DNA of 64,000 bases from Flaccisagitta enflata (GCA_965153355.1 OZ231126.1:16740001-16804000); one strand, 5' to 3'; positions 20,101 to 32,100 are shown, counted from the first letter of the stretch. Numbers and translations: made by a program. Notes: generated by a model not told the origin, from the sequence alone.

Positions 20101-23100
20101 CATAAACCTAGAGTCAAATCTATGTTTTAAGACAAATCTGGCTATTTTCATTTGAGGTGAAAGTTGAGTCGTTGAGCTTGAGGCATAATGATTGTATTTG
20201 GACACAAATAACAACCAATGGTGAAAATGGATATCCGAAAATTTTCTTGCTCAGTCTCTCTCTCTCTCTCTCTCTCTCTCTCTCTCTCTCTCTCTCTCTC
20301 TCTCTCTCTCTCTCTCTCTCTCTCTCTCTCTCTCTCGCCTCTTTTATTTCCTTCCTTCTTCTTTCTCTCTTCCAAATTTCCATACGGTGAGACCCCGCAA
20401 TAACAGCCTCGCTTTTAAAGGTTCCCCATCAATAAAGGTCATCATTTTGAGGTCCCAAATGGTAGTTTTTAATGTGATTTCACCTGTCTTTAAAGGTTAC
20501 CCTGAGATAAAGGTGAAAACTCTTCAGTCCTAATAGGACCGATGAGGCGGGGTATTACTTTATTTCCTTTGCTCTGTCTCTTTTCCCTTATTTCTTTTCC
20601 GACTGAAGAAGATTCGAGTACGGATCGAAAGTTTTCGGATATCAATTTTTACCATTCGTTGTTATTTGTGTCCAAATACAATCATTATTTTCATTTGACT
20701 CATATGACAAAAACACTGTTTTAAGGTTATGAAAGTCTATCTATCAATTTCATGAGGAGCCTTTCAAAGGGCTCACCACATTTTCATTCATAACTGTGTG
20801 AAAGCCAAACTGCTGGAGCCACAACATTGAAATTTTGCATGAATAAATGGTAGGATATGTGCTTTAAGACAAAACCAATCTGGATTTCTAAATATGAATA
20901 CTTTAGGCACAATAAAGGTTTTGCTGGTTCCAGTCGCTTTTGAAAGCAGGGTAAGGCTAGGGCTGCTGTATGTCTGGGCAGGGGCCAAGAGATCACTCTC
21001 CCAGCCGATTTCACGTCATCTAAATTTTCGCGTTCCAGACAGACCAAGGGACACACCCGGTTATAGAGTCGTTAGCAAGCGACTAAAAAGGCTCAACCAA
21101 AACAAGTGCAAAACCACAGTGACTAGTTATGTACACTTTTACCGTTAGACGTACGCTCTAGTGGCGCATGTCTTTACCGTTCAAGAAATTGTTGAAATGT
21201 GGAATCGCAGGTCACCTGCGTCTCCGATACGAATGGGCGGACCGAAACGTGGCTGATAGTGATGGAGTCGCGTGTGAGCGACCCATAAACGCCGCTTGGT
21301 TAATCGTCCTTTTTTCGACAGCAGACACAGTACAGACAGGACAGGCCGAGAACACTGAGAAAGACGATGATGAAGACATATGCGGGTCCCGCCAAAACCA
21401 AAGCGGCCACGGCCAAATGTCGAGCTCGCATTTTCGCTGCGTTGTGTTCTAGTTGTTGTTCGATAAAAAAGAGATCTGTAAGTTATGCATGCAAGATTAC
21501 TTTAGGTTAATTTTTTTTTTAATCTCGAAAATGCATGGATATTTTTTTTCCAGTTGCAACTATAGTTAGCATAAAAATCTTTGTGAATTTTAATCATTGA
21601 GGGGAATGATATTAGGATAACATTGATAATACAGTAACATATAAATTAGCGGCTAAAAAAGGATTTTGAAAACTACAAAAGATGAATGAAATTTGAAAAG
21701 ATAAAAACACCAAAAGTAAAATTTCATAACATATGCTCTTTGATGTTGATGGTCTCATCAACTAGTCCGATAGCTTAATAGGCAATACAAATAGAGCACA
21801 CACAAGGAAACTTTAACGGACATTTGCGCCAGTGCGCTACTTGCCCTACCAGTTACAAGGGCTGCTTTTCTCCCTTCATACCAGTAAAGGTGGCTCTCGC
21901 CGACCGGAAAAAAATCGTAAGGGCTGTTTTGTGTGTGTGTGTGTGTGTGTGTGTGTGTGTGTGTGTGTGTGTGTGTGTGTGTGTGTGTGTGTGTGTGTGT
22001 GTGTGTGTGTGTGTGTGTGTGCGTGTGCGTGCATGTGTGTGTTGTTTGTGTCTGTTTCGCTGTGTCTCTGTCGCTGTCTCTCTCTCTATGGCTGTCACTC
22101 TCTGTCAGTCTGTCTGTCTGTCTGTCTGTCTATCTGTCTGTCTGTCTCTCTCTCTCTCTCTCTCTCTCTCTCTCTCTCTCTCTCTCTCTCTCTCTCTCTC
22201 TCTCTCTCTCTCTCTCTCTCTCTCTCTCTCCGCCTCATCCTCCTTCCCTCTCCCTCCATCTCCATCCCCTCTCCCTCTCTCCCTCCTCTCTCTCTCCCTT
22301 CCTCCCTCCTCCTCTCTCCCTCCCTCTCTTCCTCCTCCCTCTCTCCCTCCCTCCCCCTCACCCTCCTTCCCTCTCCCTCCATCTCCCTCTCCTCCCCTCC
22401 CTCTCACTTTCTTCATCTCTCTCCCTCTCTTTCTCTCTCCCTCCCCTCTCCGTCCCTCTCTCTCCCTCCCCCTCCCTCCCTCCCTCGCCCTCCATCTCTC
22501 CATCCCTCTTCTTTCCCTCCCTCTTCCCTCCCTCCCTCTCCCTCCCTCCCTTCCTCTCCCTCCCTCCCTTCCTCTCCCTCCCTCCCTCTCCCTCTTTCCC
22601 TCCCTCCCTCTTCCTCTTTCCCTCCCTCTCCCTATCCCTCCCCCTCTCCCTCTCTCCTCCCTCCCTCCTTCCCTCACCCTCCCTATGCCCTCTGCTGAAC
22701 TCATTTTTGTTGTTACTTAGGGCCAAAAATTGAGATCAATGAAAAATATAGATCTTTAAGAAAAATGCGGAAAATGTGAAAAAATAAAAAAAGATTAAAA
22801 AATTCATAGCGCCTAAAGTATTGGTCCCACAGTGCCCTGCTTTTTTCCAGAAGGTGTAAAAAAGTGCCCTCTTTCACCCTGTACCAATTTCAACCCCAGC
22901 CTCGGGCGAGCCTAGTTCTGACTCAACTTCCTCAAATTGTCCCAAGCGAAAAAGGGAAACATTAATTCCTAACCCGGAACTCAAAAAATCGAAAAACGTT
23001 TTTCGATTTTTTTCCCAATTAATTAGAAACTTTAACTTTATCTGCACTTTTCTACAGGTGCAAATGCGCTAATGCGCTAGGAAATGCGCTATGTAATGCG

Positions 23101-29100: not shown

Positions 29101-32100
29101 GTCTGTTCTTTCTGATTTTAAGTAGGATAAATGAATGAATATTTTCATACTTGTTTAAGCAAGCAAATAAAAAAAATATATCAGTGAACAGAGCAGCTCA
29201 TCTCTGAGAGTGTTTTTAAGTATTCTAGCTCATTTAGCTCATTTAGCTTGCTCTTTTTCTCTGATTTGAAATAGGATAAATAAAATAATGTTTTGATTTA
29301 AGCATGCAAATACAAGAAAGCATGTCAGTAAGCAAAGCTGGTTGTCTGGTTGAATTATTTCGAAGATTTTAGCTCATTTGGCTCGGTTCTATTTTTCTCT
29401 GATTTTCAGTGCAATCAATACATACAATTGCTTTTGATTTGATCTAATAAATAAAAAAAATTCAATGACTGAAGACAAAAGCAGGGTGAAAAGTGACCAA
29501 TGCTTACGACTTTTTTCCTCACAGCGACAGCCGCCATTACTGGTACTAAAATTCAAGTTTTTTCCTAATGCTTTTTAAATATTATCGCAAACGAAATTTT
29601 TTTTCAAGATTTGAAGCCTTCGTATGTTCTTAAGATGTTCTTAATTTTGGGGCAATTCGAAGCCTTGATGTTCTTATAGACTAGGTTCTTATTCCATGAC
29701 ACTAGGTCAACATTTAGTATAGTTTTTCCCAATTTGCAGTAGTGACAAAAATTATGAGATAGATGTTACCATGGAACTATCAAATATAATGTGTAAAATC
29801 GAAGCAATTGCAAAATCTTAGCAAAATCTATGACAACATTAAAAGATCTTTTAAATGATCCCATGCTGGTTATCCGCAGTTAATTTGTTTAGAAATGACA
29901 TTAGGATGAAGACAGGCTGTCAGGAATTTAGAAATACAGGATTTTCGTGTTTTTATTTTGCTTTAGGAAGGAATGGAAGGAAGTAAGGAACGAATTAAAG
30001 GGAGGAAGGAAGGAAGGAATGAATGGTATTCGGGAGAGAAATAAAAAAAGGAAGGAAGGAAGGAATTGTAAACGGAGCACGTAACTGGTGGCCTGTTGGA
30101 TTTGTTTTCTCTCCTCCTTTTTTTTCCTTTATTTTTTTTCTTTTCTTTTTTTTTCTCTCTCTTATTTCTTCTACCTCCATTTTTAGTCGCGTGCTACGCA
30201 ATTCTACACCCCGCTATGTCGGTCCGTTGGTTGGTCGGTTGGTCAGTTGGTCGGTTGGTTAGTCGGTCCTCTTTTTACTTTTTTGGCGTTTTGAGCTTTT
30301 TGAGCATACGGCTCCTGCCCAGATGCCCTAGTGACCTTCTCCAGCACTGCTCCTGCCCACCCGCACGCAACTACGGAAGCCGTGTATCTGGCCTTGTTTT
30401 TTATAAATAAAATAAAATCAAGATACTTAAAATCTATCCTCCGGTCTAGGTCGTCTTTGCTCCCATCGTACTGTACCTGGAGGATCCCGATAGTGAAGAG
30501 CGTCGCTGAGAGATGCTCCGGCCGTTAAGCCGAAGAGGACGGGGTACCCTTCTGCTTTCAGTTGGTCGTGAATGGCGAAGACTGTCGCCAAACTTCCGAT
30601 GATGACGATTATGGCCAAAGCCAACGCGATTTTTCCTAGTCTGCCATTGTAAGAACAGAATTAAGCTGGGTCACCGAATATCGTCACGGACGGGTGGGCA
30701 GGATGGTAACCCCCCCCCAACACACACATACACACAAAGTCAAACACATAAACACAAACATAAGCACCTGCAACTGCGTTTTCAGAATTCCAACTGACAG
30801 ACGGATGGACCAACGGACGGATGGACAAGCCTACGGACGGAGAGAGTTTCTTGTAAAAATACGTGTTCGCAACAAAAAATACCGGGAACCGATTTGGTTC
30901 TAGAAGAGTGCACATGCCTTGAAAAAAGTTTTACGCACCTTTTCGCCTTTGAATAGGATGAGGTTCTGAGAGAGAGAACACTCAGAATCAAACCAGGCAA
31001 CGCAAATACGGGACTGCAGCATAGACACGTGAAAATTGACAAGGAAAGGTAGTCGTTGGCTTGGCGTACTTTAGGCGCTGGAGCTGCGGAGAAAATTCAA
31101 AGCTTGCTCCGGCAATCTTTCATGATATTATCGTCACTATGTCTTTCCGTCGGTCCGTGTCATAGTATTCAACTCTGTCCCCAGCAGTTTCTGTCAAGTC
31201 TGTGTCTTCCTCTCTTTGTTCAGTTTTCGCCAGTTGAACTTGATAGTATTACTTGGAAAGAAAATGTACCTCTGGTGGGTTGATTGTCGATCGCCTGGTT
31301 TCTTGATGATAGCAAATAAGTGGTGGAAAAATATCTTAACAAAACGTTTTCATCGTCCTCCACGATGGTTGCCCGGGTTTCTCGGACCAAGACGTTGCCA
31401 TTTTTATCGAACTCAACGTTGCGTTCCGTGAAATGACCCCCCGAGATGGGGCCATCCTCCACCACAGCACCAGAAATCGTCGAAATGCTCGCCATGCCTT
31501 CCACAAAATTTGGAATATTACAAATGGACCGAGTGCAGATAAAAGCTGTAGAAAACTTTGCTCAGATTAGGCCTGACTTTCGGACGGAGAGACTGAGATG
31601 CAATCTTTTAAAGCACATACAAAACATGGTTTATTTACCTGTTCAACGTCGCCAACTGCGTTTTTAAAAAGATCTTCTTTCCTGCTCTTTACTCAGCCGA
31701 TAAATTTCTCATAAAACCTACAAACATGTTAGACTGGATTCTTTTTCAGCCTCTAGGCCAGCTTCATACAATTTGTTAACTCCGAGCGGACAACTTCGAC
31801 TTGATGTTTTCAAATGAAGTCGCGTCTTTCTGTATCGGATCGATTGCGCGATTGTTCATATTTCTGAAAACTTATGATGAGTAGTGGTCAACCGCTGTTA
31901 TATTGGGGGTTTTAATGACACGGTAATTCTGTAACTTTCCAACTGTCTGTTGGTAACTATGTCATGATCACTAATCAGGTTTCTGAAAGTATGGTAGTAA
32001 AATGATGAGAGAGAATTGCAGTATCTGTCTAAATGAAAAAAACAACAAAACAAGGTCAAATAGGCCAACGATACGTCTTCTTTGAATGAATTCACTAGGT

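Follow-up and report, generated by a model that had tools for sequence, protein, structure and literature searches.

One of the questions raised by a 64,000-nucleotide stretch of the Flaccisagitta enflata genome (GCA_965153355.1 OZ231126.1:16740001-16804000, hereafter the window) is whether two known protein families, the CD225 or dispanin family and the SRCR family, have been brought together in a single membrane protein. Candidate exons for both lie on the minus strand between positions 31495 and 21300. Are these the parts of one transcript, or do they belong to neighbouring genes, and what kind of protein would their combination give? The most parsimonious product is predicted to be a membrane protein of 346 residues with three hydrophobic segments, and its chances are judged to be about even. 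The view taken of the underlying model, in which all five exons are spliced into one transcript, is just as evenly balanced, and it is somewhat likelier that the CD225 and SRCR domains share a transcript in some form than that the full five-exon model holds.

The sequence-only reading that drew attention to the locus had proposed five phase-compatible exons and an open reading frame of about 346 codons. Splicing of the minus strand by coordinates reproduces this proposal, giving 1041 nt, or 346 codons and a TAA stop, from the following exons:

Exon 1, 31495-31270, minus strand: 226 nt; ATG at 31495; 75 codons; donor GAG/GTACAT at 31270.
Exon 2, 31083-30939, minus strand: 145 nt; first half of the CD225/dispanin domain, with hydrophobic segment 1.
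Exon 3, 30640-30477, minus strand: 164 nt; end of the basic loop, hydrophobic helix 2 and a linker of about 30 codons; donor CAG/GTACAG.
Exon 4, 27614-27285, minus strand: 330 nt; phase 1-1; one complete six-Cys SRCR domain.
Exon 5, 21475-21300, minus strand: 176 nt; 58 codons and TAA; stalk, hydrophobic segment and Cys-rich basic tail.

All four introns have GT...AG borders and the frame is continuous over the 1041 nt. The exon borders are not arbitrary, as the open frames and a unique phase-1 donor go beyond what chance would be expected to provide. The frame of exon 1 stays open for 91 codons from the ATG, and among its 13 GT dinucleotides three are in phase 1, with that at 31270 being nearest to the consensus. 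Past helix 2 the frame is open for about 30 codons to the donor at 30477, in agreement with the linker of that length in the sequence-only reading, and for 47 codons to the next stop; the donor is the sole one in phase 1 of the four GTs between the helix and that stop. The SRCR frame of exon 4 is closed 10 codons before its acceptor, which is strong, and 2 codons after its donor (CTG/GTTAGC), which is the weakest of the four donors, and the frame of exon 5 opens 2 codons ahead of its acceptor. Since read-through of exon 4 stops at once and no polyadenylation hexamer is present within approximately 680 nt after it, this exon looks internal. Hexamers of this kind are found after exon 5:

20343..20564 (starts 20564, 20473, 20348), minus strand: candidate polyadenylation hexamers beyond the stop codon.

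What is the evidence that exons 2 and 3 encode a dispanin module? The match of exon 2 to the Pfam family CD225 (PF04505) has an E-value of 3.7e-5 and 24.2 bits and covers model positions 3-31 of 68, which is half a domain. Against a profile of 14 dispanins exon 2 aligns with an hhalign probability of 94.9% over 31 columns (45% identity). A phmmer search of 1.84 billion representative proteins with exon 2 returned four matches, two of which were discarded as repeat artefacts with only spurious Pfam matches of their own. The best true-family match among these representatives, P0124, is a snake protein named in its source as 'proline-rich transmembrane protein 1-like', whose membership of CD225 Pfam confirms with 102 bits and which matches exon 2 with an E-value of 1.8e-4 and 50% identity over 28 residues. 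The fourth match, P0001, is a genomic fragment of another organism that is 80% identical to exon 2 in an alignment ending near the exon borders; comparison of exon 2 with longer proteins likewise gave one match among 71 candidates, a genomic fragment. In a feature search of the Atlas with exon 2 the top clusters were all CD225 (best score 0.88, with 170 shared features), and all ten of the ten best matches that have a family belong to the CD225 family or clan. The CD225 signature noticed from the sequence is, for the first half of the domain, supported by Pfam and backed independently by hhalign, phmmer and Atlas.

The details of the module follow the dispanin plan. A first-segment motif of the D-Y-L-x-x-S-I-F-x-x-L-C-C type with paired cysteines is present in exon 2, where the first hydrophobic, intramembrane segment takes up residues 87-115 (window 30965-31051) and carries Cys95, Cys97 and Cys98. 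Ahead of helix 2 (residues 128-147, window 30571-30630, within a hydropathy segment at 122-151 that peaks at 2.75) lies a loop with four Lys or Arg in 12 residues. A purpose-built hidden Markov model (HMM) of 15 dispanins scores 22-23 bits on the spliced protein, with an alignment that crosses the exon 2/3 junction to residue 133 and in which the loop is 3 residues shorter than in other dispanins. Exon 2 encodes the first half of a domain of the CD225/dispanin type, and exon 3 supplies the loop and the second helix. No GxxxG motif can be read between the two hydrophobic segments. Such a loop motif is found in many family members, though not in IFITM5 and IFITM10, and drives the oligomerisation of IFITM3 (G91/G95) and PRRT2 (G305) (PMC7665892), and in its absence an IFITM-like control of fusion cannot be assumed here.

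The five-exon model departs from the family in what comes after helix 2. Dispanins have fewer than 10 residues beyond this helix in the account given in PMC3282796, and the premise of the sequence-only reading that their C-terminus is normally very short holds both there and in the one locus, L001, that a metagenome scan with exon 2 aligned to P0001 brought up. L001 contains two tandem, two-exon, ordinary dispanin genes with proline-rich N-termini (1171-2194 and 5255-6255, plus strand), in which the stops are placed 1-10 codons past helix 2. The model has about 200 residues after helix 2, or 47 if exon 3 is read through, and it is this large C-terminal extension that sets it apart from the usual dispanins.

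The identity of exon 4 is clear. It is a full-length match to the Pfam SRCR family (PF00530), at model positions 3-100 of 100 (window 27295-27585), with an E-value of 8e-28 and a score of 97.1 bits that clears the gathering score of 26.1 bits, and 25 Protein Data Bank (PDB) sequences match it at E<=1e-10, including CD163, LOXL2, neurotrypsin, SCARA5, MARCO and DMBT1. Its six cysteines, at residues 210, 223, 254, 264, 274 and 284, align with the corresponding cysteines of the CD163 domains, and two extra cysteines of those domains are absent, so that the complete six-Cys domain described from the sequence is upheld. Six cysteines of this kind form the 'group A' pattern of SRCR domains. An N-E-S sequon at residue 189, also in exon 4, is the only one in the protein. 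The cation sites of the family are known from SRCR8 of DMBT1, in which the coordinating residues are D1019, D1020 and E1086 at one site, D1020, D1058, D1059 and N1081 at another and D1023 and D1026 at a third (PMC7043408). With identical spacing these map to D211, D212 and E278, to D250, D251 and N273, and to D215 and E218, such that all eight positions of coordinating side chains are conserved, one of them with Glu in place of Asp, in a mapping that is based on equal spacing rather than on a computed alignment to the 6sa5 chain. The cation and ligand site thus looks intact, and the full-length Pfam match together with the retention of all cation-site residues suggests that the domain is under constraint.

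The last exon would provide a second anchor. In exon 5 a hydrophobic stretch of 33 residues (309-341, window 21318-21416) has a Gly-Pro close to its beginning and Cys335, Cys338, Cys340 and Cys341 at its end, and is followed by R-K-K-D-D and the stop. Over the 15 kb that follow exon 4 there are seven phase-1 candidates for a hydrophobic terminal exon, and exon 5 has the highest hydropathy of those that are not repetitive. Hydropathy analysis of the spliced protein gives three segments (87-115, 122-151 and 306-343), the last of which agrees with the hydrophobic C-terminal segment and Cys-rich basic end that had been described, and none in the first 86 residues, as had been claimed for a soluble N-terminus without a signal peptide.

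How would such a chain be arranged in the membrane? IFITMs place the N-terminus in the cytosol and the C-terminus on the exoplasmic side, are tail-anchored and have a very short exoplasmic end (bioRxiv 10.64898/2026.02.27.708584). By analogy with IFITM3, residues 1-86 and the Cys-Cys first segment would lie on or in the cytosolic leaflet and the basic loop would be cytosolic. As about 200 residues come after it, helix 2 would not be a tail anchor in the IFITM style; it would instead act as a type II signal-anchor with co-translational insertion. The linker, the glycosylatable SRCR (N189) and the stalk would then be extracellular or luminal, and the last segment would return the Cys-rich basic tail, which could be palmitoylated, to the cytosol. 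The sole sequon and the six disulfide cysteines all fall in the predicted outside part and the R-K-K comes after the last segment, and the predicted topology of the five-exon product is in this respect coherent.

The SRCR exon is argued to join the dispanin exons because the phases match, the donor at 30477 is unique, the frame leading to it is long and open, no signal-peptide exon is available to the SRCR and the topology of the product would be coherent. A number of observations weigh on the other side. Exons 1, 3 and 5 carry no family signal of their own: none of them matches a Pfam family even at an E-value of 10, exon 1 has no Atlas match and exon 3 alone reaches an hhalign probability of 2% against the dispanins. 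Exon 2 by itself, with its 24.2 bits, remains below the CD225 gathering score of 27.1 bits. A phase match between unrelated exons is to be expected one time in three, and a last segment of 33 residues that contains Gly-Pro may be something other than one simple span. The codon composition of exon 4 also stands apart, as the GC content at third codon positions (GC3) is 35/109 = 0.32 in this exon vs 127/233 = 0.545 in exons 1, 2, 3 and 5 pooled (Fisher p = 1.2e-4), a pattern compatible with another origin or another gene. Taken singly, exons 1, 2, 3 and 5 have a GC3 of 0.49-0.57 and two stretches of exon on the opposite strand, from a neighbouring receptor gene, 0.54-0.72; the GC content of the flanks is similar (0.35 vs 0.38) despite the gap in GC3.

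Comparative and RNA data likewise fail to support the joining of the exons. A protein with both CD225 and SRCR is absent from the 120 listed of 350 exon-4 matches, the 15 matches of P0124 and the four matches of exon 2, although the 120 listed are all multi-SRCR proteins, favoured by summed scores, and so make for a weak test of architecture; the P0124 matches are dispanins from snakes and one fish. No orthologue of the five-exon model was found in the protein and metagenome searches, approximately 15 billion proteins include no annotated or transcript-derived one that contains exon 2, the sole relative being a genomic fragment, and the only related locus, L001, is free of SRCR over its 11.7 kb. 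No description of a CD225-SRCR fusion was found in the available text of the literature searched, a test of low power, and the available parts of the invertebrate dispanin literature examined mention no extra domains in dispanins; PF04505 and PF00530 are cited, in the portion available of PMC5288695, as marks of different genes. An RNA run of the same study (X1, polyadenylated RNA, of which about 6% was read) was mapped onto 26900-32700, a stretch that spans exons 1-4 and stops short of the long microsatellite arrays of intron 4. It gave no exon junctions and zero depth over exons 1-4, so none of the junctions predicted within this stretch, including 30477/27614, was seen. Out of 12,162,974 records 101 touched the stretch, all of them partial fits in repeats, and these belong to a repeat of the GTCGGTCC type and derive from other copies. 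The run consequently carries no information on the splicing of the model, and expression of the gene in that sample is weak at best; one library at 6% sampling cannot exclude tissue- or stimulus-restricted expression. The claim of one CD225-SRCR protein is upheld for its domains and exons, while their joining into one RNA is that of a gene model, for which the searches and the RNA run yielded no junction read, orthologue or annotated protein.

Which other arrangements could account for the same exons? The likeliest alternative would be two neighbouring genes, a dispanin formed by exons 1-3, which would have 194 residues and a tail of about 47 on read-through or else use another last exon, and a small SRCR-anchor gene formed by exons 4 and 5. 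The deviant GC3 of exon 4 favours such a division, as does the end of exon 3, where read-through meets a stop after 16 further codons and AATAAA hexamers follow at 30133 and 29957, and a signal peptide followed by an SRCR and a transmembrane segment is a familiar type I layout; the failure of the protein searches to find a fused protein is a further, low-power, point in its favour. An SRCR gene of this kind would, however, need a beginning, and the 2.9-kb intron that precedes the SRCR exon offers no rival first exon combining an ATG and a hydrophobic stretch with a donor in phase 1, whereas the candidates upstream of exon 1 are of low complexity and have poor donors. A 47-residue tail would itself be atypical of a dispanin as the family is set out in PMC3282796, and the GC3 of exon 5 (0.53) groups with exons 1-3 and not with exon 4, so that two genes appear rather unlikely; they would amount to an ordinary dispanin beside an ordinary small SRCR protein. 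The same GC3 pattern, with the deviation confined to exon 4, is what would be seen if the main product were a three-segment dispanin made from exons 1-3 and 5 and the SRCR exon a rarely used recent cassette or an unused relic. Exon 4 is phase 1-1 and can be skipped with the frame kept, and copies of the GTCGGTCC-type repeat lie to either side of it. Yet its 109-codon SRCR frame is intact behind a strong acceptor, and the six cysteines and eight cation-site residues are kept, from which use and purifying selection are argued; the frame is moreover closed shortly outside both borders, as in a working exon. Regular skipping is accordingly seen as quite improbable.

A locus that is silent or decaying, without a stable product, would explain the zero depth in X1 and why, among so many annotated or transcript-derived proteins, exon 2 has a genomic fragment as its only relative. 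The limited sampling of that library speaks against giving its silence much weight, and the state of the locus points the other way, with five intact frames, usable splice sites, an SRCR of 97 bits at full length and an exon 2 that is 80% identical to P0001 up to near its borders, and little probability is attached to this explanation. Less still is given to a protein of 289 residues that ends after the SRCR, in which exon 4 would be the last coding exon, exon 5 a chance frame or foreign and the domain tethered at one end in a manner like class A scavenger receptors. It draws on the weak exon-4 donor, on the stop reached two codons beyond it, on the want of a family signal in exon 5 and on the six other phase-1 candidates in the 15 kb downstream. 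Set against these are the missing polyadenylation hexamer after exon 4 and the character of exon 5 itself, with its non-repetitive hydrophobic stretch of 33 residues, a Cys-Cys-Arg-Lys-Lys and stop, a usable acceptor and a frame that opens just before it, whereas the strongest of the other six candidates are translations of microsatellites or low-complexity sequence. Elsewhere in the locus, none of the 10 longest non-repetitive intronic open reading frames contains a Pfam family that would betray a hidden exon, and the 64-kb window contains neither another SRCR exon nor another CD225 exon.

The surroundings of the exons are rich in repeats. Arrays of 12-mers of the GTCGGTCC type form an interspersed repeat, found at 27049-27148, 27902-27945, 30198-30391, 32138-32331 and elsewhere, that in one frame gives recurring 'PSV(G/R)' strings, for example in the open reading frames at 30072-30410, 41161-41472 and 59089-59475. 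An inverted repeat resembling a miniature inverted-repeat transposable element lies in intron 4 at 26588-27022, about 260 nt downstream of the SRCR exon, with 154-nt arms that are 80% complementary and 127 nt apart. Capture of exon 4 by a transposable element was considered and dropped, as the exon is not bracketed by terminal repeats and has only the common repeat arrays and this inverted repeat in its vicinity. The window is also very heavily loaded with microsatellites, whose long di-, tri- and tetranucleotide arrays occur at 7530-8519, 9796-10908, 14855-15610, 21930-22684, 23449-23788 and 34830-35280 and produce long spurious open reading frames in all frames.

The five exons are also placed with respect to a second gene, on the opposite strand, that encodes a rhodopsin-type G protein-coupled receptor (GPCR). 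Four exon-like open reading frames are colinear on the Pfam 7tm_1 model over positions 1-228:

14638-15000, plus strand: GPCR 7tm_1 open reading frame, model positions 1-60, E 7e-8.
15687-16046, plus strand: GPCR 7tm_1 open reading frame, model positions 16-111, E 3e-7.
17402-17614, plus strand: GPCR 7tm_1 open reading frame, model positions 107-176, E 1.7e-4.
18119-18268, plus strand: GPCR 7tm_1 open reading frame, model positions 203-228, E 5e-3.

The sole candidate from 18.3 to 40 kb for a seventh transmembrane helix with an NPxxY-type motif is at 34769, in an open reading frame (34664-34870, plus strand) that has no Pfam match. If this is the last exon of the GPCR gene, then the five exons are nested antisense in one intron of 16.4 kb. 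All five fall within this one apparent intron, at 18.3-34.7 kb, a shared setting that counts in favour of a single gene, and the locus looks like a protein-coding gene that is antisense within the apparent last intron of the receptor gene. The company of CD225, SRCR and a rhodopsin-type GPCR points to an animal genome. A search of the window against Rfam gave no matches.

If the locus is transcribed as modelled, it represents a new domain arrangement of two known families, most likely brought about by shuffling. Invertebrates commonly shuffle SRCR exons, and here one of symmetrical phase 1-1 would have been inserted into a dispanin-type gene. As the codon composition of the SRCR exon deviates, the event would have been fairly recent, and the low GC3 may mark the arrival of the exon. 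What might the combination achieve? Calcium-dependent ligand binding has been demonstrated for an SRCR of DMBT1 (PMC7043408), and by comparison the SRCR of the model, tethered at both ends, would bind polyanionic or repetitive ligands, such as microbial surfaces, matrix or other proteins, via Ca2+ and close to the bilayer. IFITMs stiffen membranes by means of an amphipathic helix that binds cholesterol (bioRxiv 10.64898/2026.02.27.708584). The dispanin module would in turn set the membrane behaviour of the receptor, either by control of curvature or stiffness and of fusion, as with IFITM3, or by directing vesicle traffic, as with PRRT2, TRARG1 and SynDIG1. A role as an innate-immune receptor, as the sequence-only reading suggested, could be conjectured from these analogies only. 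Bolder still, and a slim chance, would be a doubly anchored sensor-effector dispanin, in which a Ca2+-dependent SRCR on the outside is wired to an IFITM-type stiffening module on the inside such that the capture of a ligand or microbe at the surface of the cell or endosome directly gates membrane fusion or uptake.

Why would this matter? Dispanins, which include IFITM, PRRT2, TRARG1, SynDIG1 and TMEM233, act within the membrane and have almost no ectodomain, and how they are targeted to particular membranes and events is an open point. The single-transcript model, if true, would mean that a binding domain outside the cell can drive a CD225 module, and would offer a simple system for ligand-recruited CD225 as well as a new layout within the large and shuffled SRCR repertoire of invertebrates. 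In the sensor-effector version a dispanin would for the first time have a ligand-binding ectodomain, and it would represent an interferon-independent, ancestor-like form of IFITM-type entry control.

How, finally, does the modelled protein compare with known systems? With IFITM3 and other IFITMs it shares a soluble N-terminus that lacks a signal peptide, a Cys-Cys first segment, a short basic loop and a membrane-spanning helix. IFITMs differ in having about 130 residues, with the tail anchor and very short exoplasmic end noted above (bioRxiv 10.64898/2026.02.27.708584), where the model continues for some 200 residues after the same helix. Furthermore, the shorter loop here has no GxxxG, and an interferon system is not implied in an invertebrate-like genome. 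By sequence the closest relatives are dispanins of the PRRT1, PRRT2 and TRARG1 type, represented by P0124, and their loop is only 3 residues longer than the one here. Their N-termini, however, are proline-rich and they end soon after helix 2, whereas the model has no proline-rich region and a large C-terminal extension. The position of the intron is also different, being at the end of the loop here, whereas the two L001 genes have it just behind their first segment.

On the SRCR side there is a parallel in layout with the class A scavenger receptors SCARA5, MARCO and SR-AI, in which, as in the model, a type II helix with its N-terminus inside displays a six-Cys SRCR on the outside. These are also close by sequence, with the exon-4 domain matching the solved domains of SCARA5 at an E-value of 3e-24, MARCO at 2e-23 and SR-AI at 4e-20. 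Class A receptors are trimeric and have a collagenous or coiled-coil stalk, whereas the 35-residue linker of the model has no Gly-X-Y run and no Pfam collagen family was detected; assignment to this class was dropped for lack of the Gly-X-Y stalk. The anchor is also distinct, as a dispanin module takes the place of a plain helix and a second anchor follows the SRCR. With DMBT1 (SALSA; PDB 6sa4 and 6sa5; PMC7043408), whose domains match exon 4 at E-values of about 1e-21 to 4e-22, the likeness is in the cation-coordinating residues, which are the same but for the one Asp to Glu change and have the same spacing. DMBT1 is, however, a secreted protein with many tandem eight-Cys SRCRs, whereas the model would hold a single six-Cys SRCR at the membrane.

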